Origin: Cenarchaeum sp.
Lineage (GTDB): Archaea > Thermoproteota > Nitrososphaeria > Nitrososphaerales > Nitrosopumilaceae
Direction of reading: 5' to 3'
DNA length: 64,000 nucleotides
NCBI GenBank assembly: GCA_965206845.1
Contig: OZ242221.1
Coordinates: 832,001-896,000, forward strand
Each line of letters starts with the position of its first letter. The stretch's first letter is position 1. A model generated the notes under the pieces. That model did no database searches, was not told where the DNA came from, and saw only the letters and a list, made by a program, of their open reading frames with translations. Both the position numbers and the translations under genes were made by a program. Of the stretch, positions 7,590-40,735 are shown one piece after another.

Positions 7590-7751
7590 GTGTCAGTCGA
7601 TGTAATCTGTGGAAAGTGTGGCAGCAAGATTACCAGCATGAAGACACTCAAGCCGATAAAGGAGTTAATGAACACGCATAAGGGCAAGTGCCCCTCCTGT
7701 GGACACGCCGTGTCGACGTCGGAGTTTACCTTGGATGTTCAGGACAGGTAG
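7590..7751 (+). CDS. Small zinc-finger protein (53 aa)
   Basis: GTG start; MSVDVICGKCGSKITSMKTLKPIKELMNTHKGKCPSCGHAVSTSEFTLDVQDR; two CxxC; AT-rich TATA-like tract about 25 nt upstream. Confidence 0.8.
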   Translation: MSVDVICGKCGSKITSMKTLKPIKELMNTHKGKCPSCGHAVSTSEFTLDVQDR

Positions 7752-7810
7752 GGGAACCGGCAGGCGCCGGCCACTACGCGCACCCCCACATGCACAAAAG
7801 AGCGCAGGCG

Positions 7811-9826
7811 CTATTGAACGGCCGGCCTTATCTGTGGCCTGAAGAAGGAGAGTAGCTCCGAGGCCCTCTCAATGGCATTCCTGACCGCTTCGGGATCAGA
7901 CCCCCGGCCGAACTCCAAGTCTGTCACTAGCCCGCCGCCAAACATCTCTGCGAGCCTGCTGATCTCAAGGATGTCTTCGCTCTCTGCAGAGTACTCGCCC
8001 ATCCGGGAACCATCAAGGGAGGTGCCCGTGCTGTAGGCCGGGCCGTCGAGGATTTTTTGAAGTGCGGCCTTGCCGAACTTGTCACCGTCAAGGGATGCAA
8101 GTCTTGCCGCACCGTCGCTCTCCACCATGCAGATTCTAATGTCGTCACCGCTCGCCTTGCTGCCCTTCTTTGCCACATCTGACGCGGTATTGATCACGCC
8201 GCGCAGTATGTTGCGCCCGTCCTTGTTGTCTTCATACCCCAGAATCCCAAAGACCGCCTCGTGCAGTCCGATCAGGTTCAGCGTCATGGATACGCTTCCG
8301 TGCTGCATGTGCTGGGTGTTTTTTACAAGCAGGGGGTTCAGCCCTTTCCTGATCAAGTCTGTAACGTGCCTGCGCCGGATGGACATGGCCTCCAGCACCG
8401 GCTTCATCAGGATGACCAGGTTGGCCCTAAAGTACATCTCGTCCTTGTTGGATTCAAGAGCCAGTCTTGGCAGGTTGATGGAGATGGAACCCAGGTGAAC
8501 CGATGTGGGATCCTTACCCCTGGCAGCGCATGCAACCCCCCCGGCCGATGTCTGCCCCTTTACAAACGCAACATGCCCGCCGAGACAGATGATCTCTGCC
8601 AGCCTTTCAGACATGTCGGTGATGCCTGCCCTGTCATAATCTATGATGAGGCCGATCTTTGGGGATGCGGTGATCTCTGCGTATCTTTTGTACGCCTCCA
8701 GAATCGTGGAGGTAACCTCTGGACTCTCACCCATCACGAGCCGGAACGAGACGATGGCCGGCTTTTCATTATACCTTGAGACGGTGGATGCGGCCGCAAA
8801 CGCACAAGCCATCTTTTGCTCCACATCTGGGAGCATCCCGGCGTACTCTGAGAGCAGCGGAACGAGTCCGTCCATAACCACCTCCTGAGATGCCTCTTTG
8901 TTGGATAGGGAGATCGACATCGATATCAGTGAGGACAGTTCGTCCAGGTTTTTGGCCGCCGGCAGCCTGGAGACATCATGGAGCTTGTCGCCTATGTCGA
9001 TACCGTTCTCCACCAGCTTTCTCACATCGAAGAAGACTATGTCAGGCAGCAGGGACCAGAGTCCGGGATTTGTAATGTGCAGGTCCCCGGAGAGGTAGGC
9101 GTCGGCCACATCCTTGGAGAGGTTGTTCGTAAGCAGGAGCTCCGAATGAATGACCTGGCCTGCCCTCAGCAGCAGATCTTCTGTGCTGCCGCCGTCGGTG
9201 TAATCCACATTTGTCATCGTCTCCTGCACATCATAAACCGGGAGTCCCAGTCTGGCAAGCCTGCTCCGGTACTCCTCGTGGCCGTGCTCCAGAAGGACCG
9301 AGTTTACCATCTCCCGGATGAGCGAGCTGGTAAGATGTGTAGTCTGATACTTGTATATGCGGTTCTCCACCTCCTCCGTAATCTTCTGCGCCAGCTCCAG
9401 CGGAAGGCCCCCCTCCCGAACCAGGGACTGTGTTATCTTGTGCGAGTTGAACTCCTCAATGGACCAGCGGGACGTTCTGACGTACATCTTGCCCGCCTCG
9501 ATTATGGATCTCTCCTCGATCTGCCTTGCAAGGCTGAGAACGAGCTTGCCCAGATTGGTAATCGTGTACTTCTTCTCGGATTTGTTCAGTGCAACCAGGG
9601 ACTGCTTGAGCAGTTTTCTTAGGTGGTATGCAAACTTGCCGCTCTCCTTTTTTGACCTGAACCCGGCATGTGACTTTAGCTCCGAGTATGTGAGAGGGCC
9701 TTTGGAGTTTAGGATTCGTAGGATGTCGATTCTGTTGGGGCTTGCCATGACCGAGAAGATCATTTTTACGCGCTTGGAGGTAGAGCGGATTATTCCGCCC
9801 CTTCCGGGTGCTTCTGATGCCATCAC
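7811..9826 (-). CDS. ArsR-type wHTH + ATP-cone + degenerate class III ribonucleotide reductase (NrdD-like) fusion
   Basis: N-terminal wHTH (NRIDILRIL...LTYSEL...YHLRKL...YTIT.LG); ATP-cone (VRTSR.SIEEFN..KI..SL...IREMVNSVLLE.G); NrdD-like motifs AYLSGDLHI, GSISINLPRLALES, IGLHEA, RLASLD.DKFG; no C-terminal glycyl-radical domain. Confidence 0.8.
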   Translation of the reverse strand: MMASEAPGRGGIIRSTSKRVKMIFSVMASPNRIDILRILNSKGPLTYSELKSHAGFRSKKESGKFAYHLRKLLKQSLVALNKSEKKYTITNLGKLVLSLARQIEERSIIEAGKMYVRTSRWSIEEFNSHKITQSLVREGGLPLELAQKITEEVENRIYKYQTTHLTSSLIREMVNSVLLEHGHEEYRSRLARLGLPVYDVQETMTNVDYTDGGSTEDLLLRAGQVIHSELLLTNNLSKDVADAYLSGDLHITNPGLWSLLPDIVFFDVRKLVENGIDIGDKLHDVSRLPAAKNLDELSSLISMSISLSNKEASQEVVMDGLVPLLSEYAGMLPDVEQKMACAFAAASTVSRYNEKPAIVSFRLVMGESPEVTSTILEAYKRYAEITASPKIGLIIDYDRAGITDMSERLAEIICLGGHVAFVKGQTSAGGVACAARGKDPTSVHLGSISINLPRLALESNKDEMYFRANLVILMKPVLEAMSIRRRHVTDLIRKGLNPLLVKNTQHMQHGSVSMTLNLIGLHEAVFGILGYEDNKDGRNILRGVINTASDVAKKGSKASGDDIRICMVESDGAARLASLDGDKFGKAALQKILDGPAYSTGTSLDGSRMGEYSAESEDILEISRLAEMFGGGLVTDLEFGRGSDPEAVRNAIERASELLSFFRPQIRPAVQ

Positions 9827-26833: not shown

Positions 26834-28294
26834 ATGTTGAATAGGGTGCCTGTTATCATACTTGCCGTAATCGCAGTATCGGGGATTGCCGCGATACCCC
26901 TAGTTACAGAGCAGTTTGTCGATGCGGGCACCACAACAAAGGTCCACTTTACAAGAACCGCCACATCCGCACAGGATCCGGCCATTGGCCAGGAGGATGG
27001 CCAGATGACAATGATCCTGGCGCCAAATGCCGGCACCATATATGATGGCTCCCTAACCTATACTGCCAGCGAGCCGGTGCAGCTTGTGGTACTTCACGAG
27101 CTGGCCGCCGGGGATGATCTGGGACAGCCCACATGGACTGTTGACGGCAACACAATCTACGGCGCATCCGTAATTGACCAAGGCGCCAGCGCGGGCACTC
27201 TCGAGTTTACCGGGGCAGGCCTGGCACTGCGCAGCGGGGACGAGTTTGTCTCCACCGTCAGCATCGACGGATGGATTCGTGGCACGCCAGTAGAGATAGG
27301 CGCGCCGAGCGTAGAGGTGAAGGTTGACGAGAGTGAGTTTAGGATCGCGCGGGCACATGTGCCCATTACAATTCCCATGCACGAGGGACTCCATGGCGAG
27401 TCGTCCCTCTACTACATCATAACCGATTCCAGTGATGAGGACTATGCCGAGATGCTCACCGACCATCAGGGCTGGAGGGTTGAGCTTGCTCCGCCGCTGA
27501 AGAGTACTTCGGAGATTGCTCTGGAGAAGGTATACATCTTTGAGAACGGCGTTCACGGTGATGGCATCAAGGGGTATCAGGTGGAGGTATTCTCCAGCAC
27601 CCCGTGGGAGTTTAGCGATTACAGCGAGCTGCGCCAGATAACAACGGTGACATGGAGGATAGGCGAGACGCCCAGGATGCTGGACTCCGAAGCAGAGATC
27701 CTTGACGCCGTGGAGAAGGGACGGATCATGCTTACAGAGGAGGAGACGATCCTGAACATGCCGCAGATTGTGTGGCCCAACGGCCAGCTGCCCGTTCTGG
27801 ATGTCAATATAACCTCGGACGATTTCGGGTATGGTGGCGCGCAGGTAACAGATATCGATACCGGTAACATGACCGTCACGTTTGTCGCCCACCGCGGGTG
27901 GGGTCCGGACGGGGCAACCATATACTACATTGTAACCGGCGCCACGCCCTCCGGGCCTGCAGAGGCCATGGGTGTGGCCGACGTGCCAAAGTATGGCAGC
28001 CTCCTCACAAGCCCGGCAGCAGTTGATCTCTACCAGTTTTCCAACGGCATAAAGGGCCCCGGCGCGCTAGGATTCCAGCCGGGCATCTCCACCTCCGCGC
28101 TCGGTGACGACAGATACAGCCCGATGTGGAGGATATCCCTTATCGAGTGGGTCGACCCCGAGGACGCGGCCATAGTAGAGACCACGGGCGACATCGCCGC
28201 CCTGAGGGCAGAGGGCCTGATCGAGATCACCCTGGCAAGGCCCATGAACATGAACCACGTGGTAAACTGCCCGTTTGTTGATCCCTTCCAGTAG
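26834..28294 (+). CDS. Secreted/membrane-anchored protein with duplicated YYI...YSP.W domains
   Basis: N-terminal TM; two repeats YYI.T...(Y/F).NG..G.G..G(Y/F)Q.....YS; ends VNCPF. Confidence 0.7.
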   Translation: MLNRVPVIILAVIAVSGIAAIPLVTEQFVDAGTTTKVHFTRTATSAQDPAIGQEDGQMTMILAPNAGTIYDGSLTYTASEPVQLVVLHELAAGDDLGQPTWTVDGNTIYGASVIDQGASAGTLEFTGAGLALRSGDEFVSTVSIDGWIRGTPVEIGAPSVEVKVDESEFRIARAHVPITIPMHEGLHGESSLYYIITDSSDEDYAEMLTDHQGWRVELAPPLKSTSEIALEKVYIFENGVHGDGIKGYQVEVFSSTPWEFSDYSELRQITTVTWRIGETPRMLDSEAEILDAVEKGRIMLTEEETILNMPQIVWPNGQLPVLDVNITSDDFGYGGAQVTDIDTGNMTVTFVAHRGWGPDGATIYYIVTGATPSGPAEAMGVADVPKYGSLLTSPAAVDLYQFSNGIKGPGALGFQPGISTSALGDDRYSPMWRISLIEWVDPEDAAIVETTGDIAALRAEGLIEITLARPMNMNHVVNCPFVDPFQ

Positions 28295-28420
28295 GTCCGG
28301 ACTTTTGCCTCGTGCTGTGGGTTGTTCCCCACACACCCGGTAGCTGTGCGGCAAATGCCCGTGGGTTTGGATGCGCAGTTCCCCTAAAGGGATAAATTAT
28401 CTGCGGGCATCAGCAGGTAC

Positions 28421-29197
28421 ATGTTGGGCGGCAAACTCTACATAGTCGGGGTCGGGCCTGGAAGTCACGATCACATGACATTCCGCGCAAAGAGCGCCAT
28501 TGAGGAGAGCAACACCATAGTGGGCTATGAGACGTATGTCAACCTGGTGCAGGATCTGATTCACGGCAAGGACGTGTATCGCTACGCCATGACGCAAGAG
28601 GTGGAACGTGCGCGGCAGTGCATAGATCTTGCCGAGTCCGGCAGAACGGTCTCCCTGGTGTCCAGCGGAGACCCGGGCATATACGGAATGGCCGGCCTCA
28701 TATACGAGACGCTTGCAGAACGAGGCTGGAGCCCCAAGGACGGCCTTCCGGTGGAGGTCATACCCGGGGTATCGGCGCTGAACTCTTGCGCATCGATAAT
28801 TGGATCTCCACTGATGACTGACTTTGCCGTATTGAGCATGAGCGATCTGCTGGTTCCCTGGGAGATTATAATAAAGCGGGTGGAGGCCGCCGCCCGCGGG
28901 GACTTTGTCATTGTAATATACAACCCGTCCAGCAAGAAGCGGATTCACCAGCTGCAGGACACGAGGAAGCTGCTGCTGGAGTACAGAAAGCCGTCGACGC
29001 CGGTGGCGATAATAAAGGGGGCGTACCGGGAATCCCAGTCGGTGGTGCTCACGGATCTGGAGCACATGGAGGAGTACTCGAACAGGCTCGGCATGATCAG
29101 CACCGTAATTGTGGGAAACTCGTCTACGTACGCGTATGAGGAGCTGATGATAAACCCCAGGGGCTACAAGTCAAAGTACAACCTAAAGGAATCCTAG
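28421..29197 (+). CDS. cobJ: Precorrin-3B C17-methyltransferase
   Basis: VGVGPG, SSGDPGIYGMA, PGVSA, SDLLVPW, YNP.S, PRGY. Confidence 0.93.
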   Translation: MLGGKLYIVGVGPGSHDHMTFRAKSAIEESNTIVGYETYVNLVQDLIHGKDVYRYAMTQEVERARQCIDLAESGRTVSLVSSGDPGIYGMAGLIYETLAERGWSPKDGLPVEVIPGVSALNSCASIIGSPLMTDFAVLSMSDLLVPWEIIIKRVEAAARGDFVIVIYNPSSKKRIHQLQDTRKLLLEYRKPSTPVAIIKGAYRESQSVVLTDLEHMEEYSNRLGMISTVIVGNSSTYAYEELMINPRGYKSKYNLKES

Positions 29198-38206: not shown

Positions 38207-38273
38207 GCTATCCACAATCTTGTTTTTATTCCATTAAGGTTAATAATGGTTACAGGGCCTTCCATAGTTTATT

Positions 38274-38347
38274 GGGCCGGTAGTCTAGCTGGTTAGGATA
38301 CCGCCTCGACACGGCGGTGATCGTGAGTTCGAATCTCTCTCGGCCCA
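38274..38347 (+). tRNA. tRNA-Val (GAC)
   Basis: Acceptor GGGCCGG/TCGGCCC-A; anticodon arm CCGCC-TC-GAC-AC-GGCGG; TTCGAAT T-loop. Confidence 0.88.
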
Positions 38348-38718
38348 CCTTCATCTTTTTCGGGCGTTGCGGCTGCACTTTGTGGCGTGTCGGTGCTGCC
38401 GCCAGGCGGGTTCCGCACGGCCGACCCGGACGGCCTTGCCCCGCACGCGGGGCCTCCCGGCCTGATTTTGGGGACATATGTATGGGCTGCCCACCAGCAG
38501 CATGGGGTCGGGTGGGGAGATCCACTGGGGCAAGCGCCCTGATCTGGCCGGGTGTGTCATGAAAGGGAATTATATACTTCGGTAGACATAACCACGCGCT
38601 GCCCTCGGATAGGGTTTTTGTTCGGGTCTCTCCACACAGTATCCACTCCCATCTGGGCGCCTGCAACCTGTCACTCCCTGACGGCCGTGACGGCACGGAC
38701 GGTCTGCATGGTATTGCC

Positions 38719-39926
38719 GGGGTTGGTGCGTAATTCTCCGAACCGCCTAGACCAGTCCGATACGTTCAATGATCCGCGATCTCCCGCACGCGGCAATGAG
38801 CGAACACAACAGACGGGAAAGATACTGGCAGTACTATGAACTGGCAAAGGAAGTCGAGGCACCTAGTCTGAAGAGGACGCTGATCGAGATAATCCGGGAG
38901 AACCCTTGCCCGCGCCGAGAAAACGGCAACAGGGGCCGTCCCCCGGTTCACTCCAAGGAGAAACTGGACTTTGCCTGTCTGCTGATGATGGCAGGAAACA
39001 ACACCTATCGCGGAGTCGAATCGGACCTGCGAGGCATGCGGACACCATGGGACAACGAGCCCGTCCCGGACCATACCACACTGGTCAGGCACCTCCAGAC
39101 GATACCGGTGGACTGGCTCGATCTGATCGTGGCCGAGACGGCCCGCCGTTGCATCAAAGAGGCGAACGAGGCGACGGGCCCGCTGGAAGCCGACAGCAGC
39201 GCGGCGGAGACCACTAGGTACGAATACGTCGAGAGGCCAAGCAGGAAGGAGCGCGACTTCGTCGAGACACGCCAAAAGACCTACTGGAAATACCACATAA
39301 CGGCCATCTTGGGCCTGCAGATCGTGCTGGCGGCGTTTACCACGCCCGGCAACATCAACGACACGACCATGCTTCCAGTCATGCTGGCTGAGATCAGGCA
39401 TCGCGGGTTTGACTTTGCGGGGAATTTCTTTGACGGGGACAAGGGGTACGACTCTGACTACAACTGCGAGCTGCTGTTCTGGATGGGCATGATCCCCAAC
39501 ATCAAGCAACGGAAGGATGCCGTCAACCGTGGCAAGTCGCACAGGAGGAAGGCAGCTGGCATGTTCAGCGATAGCGAGTACAGAAAGAGGATCCTGATAG
39601 AGGGCATCTTCGGGGCCGAGGAGACCCGGCGGCACCAGCTGCACTGCCGGTTCGTTCGGGAGGACAACCGGCGCCGGTTCGCCAAGGGAAGGGCGATCGC
39701 TTGGAACATCCGGGTCCTCAACCGGTTCGAGTGCGCCAACCGGCTAAACATACCGATACCCTCCTACGGCGGCATGGCGCACGTGGAGTGCGCCTGATGA
39801 TCCGACCTGTCAGTAGATGATCACGGCGTGCGGGCAACAAAGCCCGACACACACCAAAGCACCGCCGGTGAAGATGCGGTAGGAGACACACATGAGCAGG
39901 ACGGAGCAGAATTACGCACCAACCCC
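38719..39926 (+). mobile_element. IS5-family (IS4 superfamily) insertion sequence, about 1.2 kb
   Basis: Perfect 19-bp TIRs GGGGTTGGTGCGTAATTCT (38719-38737) / AGAATTACGCACCAACCCC (39908-39926); no TSD visible. Confidence 0.88.
38769..39797 (+). CDS. IS5-family DDE transposase
   Basis: GRPP, PDHTTL, ADSS (D), KYH, GDKGYDS (D), YRKRILIEGIFG (E). Confidence 0.9.
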   Translation: MIRDLPHAAMSEHNRRERYWQYYELAKEVEAPSLKRTLIEIIRENPCPRRENGNRGRPPVHSKEKLDFACLLMMAGNNTYRGVESDLRGMRTPWDNEPVPDHTTLVRHLQTIPVDWLDLIVAETARRCIKEANEATGPLEADSSAAETTRYEYVERPSRKERDFVETRQKTYWKYHITAILGLQIVLAAFTTPGNINDTTMLPVMLAEIRHRGFDFAGNFFDGDKGYDSDYNCELLFWMGMIPNIKQRKDAVNRGKSHRRKAAGMFSDSEYRKRILIEGIFGAEETRRHQLHCRFVREDNRRRFAKGRAIAWNIRVLNRFECANRLNIPIPSYGGMAHVECA

Positions 39927-40710
39927 GAGGGCAAAGGACGACGACATATCCAAGATGTATTCCGAGCTCTCAAGGAAGCGAGGGGGACGCGGGAACAGGC
40001 GCATCAGGCATGATGCCAAGGAAGGCGCTAACGGCGGGAGCAAAAGCGCGGACGGCGGGAACGGCAGCGGCAGCAGCAACAACACCAACGGCAACAACAG
40101 GGACAAGCCGAGGAAGCCAAAGTCAAGGGGCTACAAAGAGCTGCAGAGGAAGATCCGGAAGAAGCGCGAGAAGCTTGCCAACCGCCAGACGAACTGGGAG
40201 CGACACGCGTCTAAGAGGATAGCCGATGGCGCCGGCACCGTGGCCATGGAGGACCTCAACCTAAACAACATGACCGCCAAGGCCAAAGGCAAGGGAAGCT
40301 CGGCCAAGACCGGGCTCAACCGCGAGATGGCCTACTCCAAGCCGGGGACTTTCCAGCGGCAGATCAGGGGGGCGTGTGATAACGCTGGCGTGACGGTCAT
40401 AATGGTCGACCCCAAGGGAACGAGCACGACCTGCCACATGTGCGGCCACGCTGACGGGAACTCCCGGATATCGCAGGGGGAGTTCCAATGCACGAATGAC
40501 AAGTGTGACAATGACATCAACGCGGACATCAATGCCGCGCATAACATTGCCGCCAAGGCGGCAGGGCGGCCGGGAAGGTCGTCCAAAGGCGCGAGACACC
40601 AGCGCGGGATTGCTCCCGCGCGCTCTGTGAACCAGACGCGAGAACCAAGCGTGGGAGGGATTGCAAGAGCGCCAGAAAAAGGCAAGGGTACTGCGTACTC
40701 TTGTATATAA
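39892..40710 (+). pseudogene. tnpB: N-terminally truncated TnpB (RNA-guided endonuclease family)
   Basis: RuvC-II VAMEDL, K.GLNR, VDPKGTSTTCHMCG...FQCTNDKC, RuvC-III NADINAAHNI; RuvC-I and the N-terminal lobe are absent; first 12 codons come from the IS5 right end. Confidence 0.88.
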
Positions 40711-40735
40711 TTCCCTCATGAAAGGCTGGTGGTAA
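40560..40735 (+). ncRNA. Candidate omegaRNA (TnpB guide scaffold + flank-derived guide)
   Basis: Hairpins at 40564-40584, 40602-40621 and 40683-40703 between the RuvC-III codons and the right TIR, where TnpB omegaRNAs are normally encoded. Confidence 0.4.

Follow-up and report, generated by a model that had tools for sequence, protein, structure and literature searches.

How does a gene for TnpB, an RNA-guided nuclease, come to lie flush against the end of a transposon that is bounded by terminal inverted repeats (TIRs) and a target-site duplication (TSD)? The question is raised by a locus in a 64,000-nucleotide stretch of a Cenarchaeum sp. genome (contig OZ242221.1, positions 832,001 to 896,000; here called the window), in which a 2151-bp element is bounded by a TIR pair and an 8-bp TSD and ends in tnpB sequence. 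An earlier note on this DNA had interpreted the locus as a DDE-type transposon that captured the nuclease gene. We consider it likely that the element belongs to a family of nonautonomous IS1595-type cut-and-paste transposons, with ends resembling those of the ISNwi1 group, whose sole cargo is tnpB together with a predicted omega-RNA. The window copy is a dead member of its family in which the omega-RNA-like segment and both ends are still intact. In window coordinates, the locus contains the following features, where IS stands for insertion sequence and ORF for open reading frame.

38554-38556, + strand: GTG of the left flank, directly before the TSD; matches R-K-G, a candidate motif resembling a target-adjacent motif (TAM), the TAM role being putative
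38557-38564, no strand: left TSD copy, TCATGAAA; present as a single copy at the empty site in run X2
38565-38577, + strand: left TIR, GGGAATTATATAC; 0 mismatches
38565-38712, + strand: left arm of the outer TnpB element, 148 bp; 91% identity to copy E1053 and 82% to copy E748 (bases 1-148)
38719-39926, + strand: nested IS5-like IS, about 1208 bp, ends GGGGTTGGTGCGTAATTCT; 6 other copies at 95-99% identity
38769-39797, + strand: transposase of the nested IS, 342 amino acids, DDE_Tnp_1, IS5-like; PF01609, 33 bits (cut-off, 23)
39892-40710, + strand: chimeric ORF, 272 amino acids; ATG and first ~12 codons from the nested IS end, the remainder from the tnpB 3' fragment
39927-40710, + strand: tnpB 3' fragment, which retains RuvC-II, the zinc finger, RuvC-III, and the tail but has lost WED, REC, and RuvC-I to a deletion
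40548-40715, + strand: conserved structured RNA region, predicted omega-RNA-like scaffold; overlaps the tnpB tail and extends into the right TIR
40703-40715, - strand: right TIR, reverse complement of GGGAATTATATAC; holds the tnpB stop codon; 0 mismatches
40716-40723, no strand: right TSD copy, TCATGAAA; would form the first 8 nucleotides (nt) of the presumed guide

The boundaries of the element were found again as the earlier note had described them: the 13-bp TIRs are perfect, TCATGAAA lies on both sides, and the TAA that terminates the chimeric ORF (40708-40710) falls within the right TIR. In a shuffle control that allowed up to 2 mismatches, the 4 observed matches were equalled by none of 100 shuffles, and the exact 13-mer occurs 24 times in the 1.65-Mb genome, against an arithmetic expectation of about 0.05. 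The TIR match is therefore not a chance event. The note had also predicted an empty allele in relatives, and one was recovered: in run X2, a contig of 458 nt that is about 97% similar to the window connects position 38556 directly to position 40716, skipping 2159 bases that correspond to the element and one TSD copy. Run X2 is an RNA library kept as contigs with patchy coverage (X1 is likewise kept as contigs), and its contig shows the joined form in a related strain, nothing more. The element is a discrete insertion with an 8-bp TSD and IS1595-type ends, and a relative lacks it at the corresponding site.

The interior of the window copy is a composite. When we searched the whole genome with the 2151-bp element, the query split into two unrelated parts. 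Element positions ~151-1363 had 6 further genome occurrences at 95-99% identity and constitute a separate IS with 19-bp TIRs, whose other copies start at genome positions 99134, 133012, 1210827, 1351955, 1360640, and 1534095 (7 copies including that in the window). Its transposase scored 62.7 bits against the NF033579 IS5 model, under the cut-off of 140. Positions 1-148 and 1363-2151 matched ~15 other genome sites at 74-92% identity. Flanks read by eye revealed 9-bp TSDs at 5 of the 6 other IS5-like copies; the window copy of the IS has none, and the outer element in the window has no counterpart of positions 149-1169 of copy E748. The arrival of the IS was therefore accompanied by a deletion of ~1 kb of its host element: it landed in the window element and removed the first ~290 codons of tnpB. 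The deleted part includes the RuvC-I aspartate, which means that the window copy fails the RuvC D-E-D triad criterion, and the surviving gene amounts to the 3' 47%. This fragment aligns to residues 291-550 of the full copy P0001 at 81% identity and scored 106.7 bits against NF040570 guided_TnpB (cut-off, 100), covering profile positions 244-389 of 389. The enclosed tnpB reported earlier is therefore present, but merely as a 3' fragment. In contigs of run X14, the right end of the IS5-like IS (39926) runs on into its left end (38717/38718) across 7-8 other letters, a pattern that would be compatible with circle or tandem junctions formed by an active IS.

The other copies with the same ends that the earlier note anticipated were plentiful. 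As defined by pairs of the 13-mer, the genome has 15 full-length elements, which range from 1.83 to 2.64 kb. Their TSDs are exact (8/8) in 9 copies, match at 6-7 of 8 positions in 3, and are absent from 3, and the TSD sequence varies from copy to copy, also as anticipated. tnpB is present in all 14 copies outside the window, as a single open frame of 543-685 amino acids in 10 and in broken or shortened form in 4 (E129, E972, E1049, and E1332). In 15/15 full copies, the tnpB stop lies 5 nt from the right element end. The intact layout, 1.8-2.2 kb long, consists of a TIR of 13-30 bp, a leader of 170-380 bp, and a single tnpB of ~520-600 codons. Pairwise identity among copies is 68-88%, with the closest pair reaching 87.6% over the last 780 nt, and by this divergence the copies are old. 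The two TIRs of a copy diverge from each other beyond 13 bp in many cases.

Two short TIR-bounded derivatives were also found, one of 706 bp (genome 938659-939364) and one of 369 bp (genome 1178387-1178755). Because the latter has no tnpB but retains 216 nt of the omega-RNA-like segment (76% identity), it may be a miniature inverted-repeat transposable element (MITE) that carries only guide RNA. Three copies (genome 1188043-1189924, 1049606-1051551, and 1332002-1333850) repeat 80-128 nt of their right end in inverted orientation as their left end, which gives them long TIRs and places part of the RNA scaffold at both ends.

The protein encoded by the family is a recognizable TnpB. The full copy P0001 scored 122 bits against NF040570, and the motifs RGVDMG, MEDL, CxxC...CxxC, and NADINAAHNIA, corresponding to RuvC-I, RuvC-II, the zinc finger, and RuvC-III, are visible in the copies. 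D265, E394, and C455 do not vary across 29 homologs, in which C458, C474, C479, and D486 reach at least 90% conservation. We compared nonsynonymous (dN) and synonymous (dS) divergence in 66 pairs of intact copies. In the protein core, dN/dS was 0.17-0.25 with a dS of ~0.72-0.75; in the tail (residues 491-549), dS was 0.21, 3.5-fold lower than in the core, and dN/dS was ~1.0. This contrast indicates selection at the protein level on the core and at the nucleotide level on the tail. All copies also have a low-complexity insert rich in Gly, Asn, and Ser and variable in length between RuvC-I and RuvC-II (residues ~320-350; in the window, for example, 40000-40110). This insert accounts for the TnpB length of 520-600 amino acids; the 443-amino-acid relative in genome G175 lacks it.

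Nucleotide-level selection on the tail coincides with a structured RNA. Conservation in the last ~170 nt of the element is far above that of the upstream coding sequence. RNAalifold folded this region into 7 helices with 45 pairs, 9 of which show compensatory changes. The fraction of paired cells was 97.2%, compared with 38-51% when the partners were slid, and 42 cells were changed on both sides, compared with at most 6 when the partners were slid. The observed score was equalled by 0 of 500 shuffles. The last helix overlaps the inner TIR. An Rfam search of the RNA region matched no family. The structure and the nucleotide-level selection are those expected of an omega-RNA scaffold lying within the gene, and we refer to this region as a predicted omega-RNA-like scaffold. 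tnpB is the only cargo of these elements, and selection acts both on its protein and on the RNA structure.

The ends of the elements point to the transposase that might move them. We take ggnnatTAT to be the ISfinder consensus for ISNwi1-type ends. The genome contains an intact IS1595-family transposase gene at 27527-28453 (PF12762, 117 bits; NF033547, 160 bits against a cut-off of 75) that keeps a left end, GGGGCTTATATCG. Directly downstream of it lie several copies of a 26-28-nt inverted repeat like GGCTCTGGTAAATTCTAGTGATCT (L031 1065-1315; genome ~27090-27340). A further IS1595 fragment, now decayed (genome 1466759-1467163; 62% identity, 2 stops), begins 51 bp inside an exact GGGAATTATATAC. 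Among 400 genomes of the same class, IS1595 homologs were found in 20 other genomes at E up to 1e-20, and ends such as GGGGATTATATAGTTAAGTAAAC, GGGGATTATATACAAAGGTAAAC, and GGGGATTATATACATGGGTATAC lie ~50 bp upstream of many of these genes. Transposase-bearing IS1595 elements of 7 related genomes have such TIRs together with 8-bp TSDs, and an 8-bp TSD was seen in 10 transposase-bearing elements of relatives. In the best matches between TIRs of the TnpB-element subtypes and the relatives' IS1595 ends, 19-21 of 23 bases agree, in support of the earlier view that the ends are DDE-type and IS1595-like.

The IS1595 elements of relatives carry other genes as well. Six of them are 2.7-4.1 kb long, have exact 8-bp TSDs, and have cargo aboard:

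L101, 3169-6595: cargo-bearing IS1595 element
L102, 5805-8614: cargo-bearing IS1595 element
L103, 3449-6610: cargo-bearing IS1595 element
L105, 3739-6432: cargo-bearing IS1595 element
L107, 3842-7969: cargo-bearing IS1595 element
L108, 2276-6144: cargo-bearing IS1595 element

Their cargo consists of DNA methylase-HNH fusions and of XcyI- and Eco47II-type restriction-modification genes, and IS630-like genes are nested in IS1595 elements of relatives. IS1595 shells in related archaea thus act as small cargo transposons.

Members of the TnpB family also occur outside this genome. We found 154 TnpB homologs, many at 60-83% identity, with members on at least 10 large contigs. Scanning genome contigs with P0001 yielded a sole locus, L062, with a 74% identical TnpB, the TSD TAACGTAG, and a nested IS66-like IS inside. 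Genome G175 has a 1350-bp element with ends of the same type that is filled by its intact TnpB and flanked by a TSD matching at 7/8 positions; in an IS1595 element of the same genome, the end agrees at 19/23 bases. In genome G296, a 1455-bp element has a 23-bp TIR and a TSD matching at 7/8 positions, and genome G018 holds fragments of TnpB elements with the same ends. Since these members in other genomes have the same architecture, the pairing of TnpB with IS1595-type ends spans at least three genera of one archaeal family. Two further candidates were rejected: the G175 IS1595 gene and a neighboring tnpB do not form a composite, as that tnpB has its own, different TIRs, and a metagenome scan with the TnpB alignment and generic peptide patterns returned 80 loci, all of them distant TnpBs (27-63% identity over short stretches). 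The neighboring tnpB (L099 ~7700-9040) encodes a 372-amino-acid protein, adjoins the IS1595 element, and has its own perfect 26-bp inverted repeat, GGTTCTGTTGGGTTAACGGGTGTTGA, with no TSD seen at this locus; it may represent a second kind of TIR-bounded TnpB. The first 10 bases of GGTTCTGTTGGGTTAACGGGTGTTGA resemble IS6-family ends.

We propose that an IS1595-family DDE transposase would move the TnpB elements in trans; the exact cognate in this genome would be the decayed gene, and one intact, more distant IS1595 gene remains. Several results weigh against this proposal. The end of the intact IS1595 gene differs from the TIR of the TnpB elements at 4/13 positions, and no right end for that gene was seen within 9 kb. 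The copies that the earlier note had predicted to encode an IS1595 transposase and TnpB together did not appear: no such element was found, and none of the 15 copies has a remnant of an IS1595 transposase at E up to 1, for which reason the TnpB elements are at best nonautonomous derivatives of IS1595. There is no sign of recent movement in this genome, given the maximum identity of 87.6% quoted above. Searches covering GTDB representatives found close TnpB relatives in 0 of 40 relatives, in 0 of 400 class genomes at E up to 1e-30, and in 0 of 400 family genomes at E up to 1e-60, G000 itself aside. Finally, the expression of the omega-RNA, its use as a guide, and cleavage by TnpB are predictions.

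Could the tnpB gene instead be unrelated to the ends that surround it? A tnpB element of the IS605 or IS607 type might have inserted by chance into an IS1595-derived MITE, and nesting of this general kind does occur, as the IS5-like IS in the window copy, the IS66-like IS in L062, and the IS630-like genes in the relatives' IS1595 elements illustrate. The constant 5-nt spacing between tnpB and the element end argues against chance, as does the overlap of the last RNA helix with the inner TIR, which means that no separate right end fits inside the TIR. The same layout recurs in copies that are only 68-88% identical, indicating that the association of tnpB with the TIRs is old and heritable. Moreover, searches for Y1 TnpA (PF01797) and for serine resolvase (PF00239) gave 0 matches in the genome, which is 99.99% complete and contains a full-length match to the archaeal small-subunit rRNA model (1455 bits). 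With no room for IS605 ends inside the TIRs and no Y1 or serine TnpA found in the genome, chance nesting is close to refuted, and we regard it as extremely improbable. The 342-amino-acid DDE gene offers another reading, according to which it is the element's own transposase and the window copy is a complete DDE-plus-TnpB transposon. The gene does lie between the outer TIRs, and the copy, which has no IS1595 remnant, thus holds a DDE gene, though a foreign one. Its IS has its own TIRs and 6 other copies, all outside TnpB elements, and 5 of these with 9-bp TSDs; it is absent from 14/14 other TnpB copies; and it replaces tnpB sequence instead of lying beside it. The IS's own TIRs, its independent copies, and the replacement of tnpB refute this reading, to which we assign next to no probability.

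The remaining account of mobility is that TnpB, with its RNase H-like RuvC fold, is itself the transposase and that the elements are autonomous. Each element has a single gene and no remnant of a transposase, the 15 copies are under purifying selection, and the genome has no intact transposase with matching ends, all of which speaks for this account. The same ends, however, are found on relatives' elements that do encode an IS1595 transposase, and the decayed IS1595 gene in this genome has an exact end. We know of no precedent for TnpB-catalyzed transposition. Mobilization of solo TnpBs in trans is moreover the published reading (PMC10691335). On balance, we think it very unlikely that TnpB moves these elements, and movement in trans by an IS1595 transposase remains our preferred explanation.

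If TnpB does not move the element, what might it do there? The target sites are asymmetric in a way that may bear on this question. We oriented the flanks by tnpB and compared the 12 copies with a TSD. The base immediately before the left TSD (position -1) is G in 12/12 copies, position -3 is G or A in 10/12, position -2 is G or T in 10/12, and the TSD begins with T or C in 12/12; no mirrored C is seen on the right flank in these copies. In the three TSD-less copies, the -1 base is G, G, and C; outside this genome, it is G in L062 and in the G175 member and A in the divergent G296 member (L202). The one-sided R-K-G motif is, in our view, a candidate TAM. On the model of IS605 TnpB, for which Meers et al. 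reportedly described a cut-and-repair cycle in 2023, omega-RNA read-through into the flank would produce a guide consisting of the TSD and the right flank. Alleles without the element, whether unoccupied or vacated by excision, would then be cut by TnpB, and the element would return when the break is repaired from a chromosome copy that has it. The left junction of an occupied site would match the guide over the 8 TSD bases only, so the element should be spared. A TnpB lineage with an R-K-G TAM might in this way serve as a homing module, cutting every chromosome copy that lacks the insertion or has lost it, a suggestion that we hold only tentatively. In a polyploid archaeon, such homing would, if it is true, carry the element to fixation, and the one-sided target bias would be the footprint of that selection.

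The left-flank G could instead reflect an asymmetric target preference of the transposase, with no TAM involved and no role for TnpB in maintaining the element. Many copies have TIRs that diverge past the first 13 bp, which could make the transposition complex asymmetric; the divergent member L202 has A at -1; and cleavage by TnpB is a prediction. In the opposite direction, the relatives' transposase-bearing IS1595 elements have G at -1 on just 6 of 20 sides (10 elements, flanks read by eye), whereas in the TnpB elements the G tracks tnpB orientation in every copy with a TSD, and tnpB in the family is under purifying selection with its catalytic triad intact. We find a pure transposase preference possible, if rather doubtful.

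How does this family compare with known TnpB carriers? The premise of the earlier note, that TnpB is confined to IS200/IS605 or IS607 elements, is outdated: Altae-Tran et al. (PNAS, 2023; PMC10691335) described six DDE-associated TnpB branches, DDE-1 to DDE-6, which have inverted ends, as well as solo TnpBs that sit in DDE shells and are presumed to be mobilized in trans. The elements described here share with these branches the inverted ends, a tnpB 3' end near the transposon end, and solo TnpBs with the same ends; they differ from that account in that the carrier is IS1595 (ISNwi1-like ends and an 8-bp TSD) and that no copy with both a transposase and tnpB is present. A 2026 review (PMC13565253) lists ISL2, IS630, and IS1031 as TnpB carriers in its main text. 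IS1595 is not named as a carrier in the main texts of PMC10691335 and PMC13565253, and a listing in the supplements of PMC10691335 is possible; among publications naming TnpB and IS1595 together, none concerns such an element, as judged by title and abstract. A cut-and-paste layout with tnpB alone is rare and has already been reported for other transposon families, and IS1595 as a carrier is at most an addition. The ISNwi1 group of IS1595 elements is said, by Siguier et al. in 2009 and in ISfinder, to have GGnnATTAT ends, an 8-bp TSD, and forms with passenger genes. The TnpB elements resemble the group, as so described, in their ends, TSD, and cargo-carrying habit; unlike it, they lack a transposase, their cargo is an RNA-guided nuclease, and a predicted guide RNA is fused to the end.

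Further parallels exist outside these groups. Fanzor proteins are found in eukaryotic transposons with TIRs and TSDs (Bao and Jurka, 2013, PMC3627910; Yoon et al., 2023, PMC10711439). Fanzor elements likewise place a TnpB-type nuclease in a cut-and-paste element, with a guide-RNA scaffold that ends at the TIR and a TSD in the flank read; unlike them, the present elements are archaeal and encode an ordinary TnpB by NCBIfam, and no descent is implied. Like the IS1341-type solo TnpB elements of IS200/IS605, the family has a single tnpB gene, is nonautonomous, and is present in many copies. IS200/IS605 elements have hairpin ends and neither TIR nor TSD, according to the main text of PMC13565253, in contrast to the TIRs and TSDs found here in a genome in which no Y1 TnpA was detected. 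That review also asks why an RNA-guided nuclease rides a transposon that already leaves a double-strand break upon excision. The window copy itself is ordinary wreckage, and the family is a good system for asking what use TnpB is to a DDE transposon. It provides a compact natural test case, with 15 diverged copies, a tnpB under purifying selection, and an RNA scaffold fused to the TIR, to which are added a one-sided flank motif that predicts the TAM and a known empty site. It would also add IS1595 to the TnpB carriers, and it shows that the IS1595 shells of this archaeal family take up varied cargo.

Other TnpB genes with inverted repeats were encountered in genome G154, which has ~27 TnpB genes of 447-562 amino acids that share a 17-nt inverted repeat, AGCGAAAGTTCGTGCAA, with conserved sequence outside the repeat. 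The ends of this TnpB family (loci L205, L208, L211, L213, and L216) are of a different type from those of IS1595. In the window, a tRNA-Val (GAC) gene lies at 38274-38349, 215 bp upstream of the insertion. A "tmRNA" called by ARAGORN at 38256-38633 covers this tRNA and the left end of the element and, the organism being an archaeon, is almost certainly spurious.

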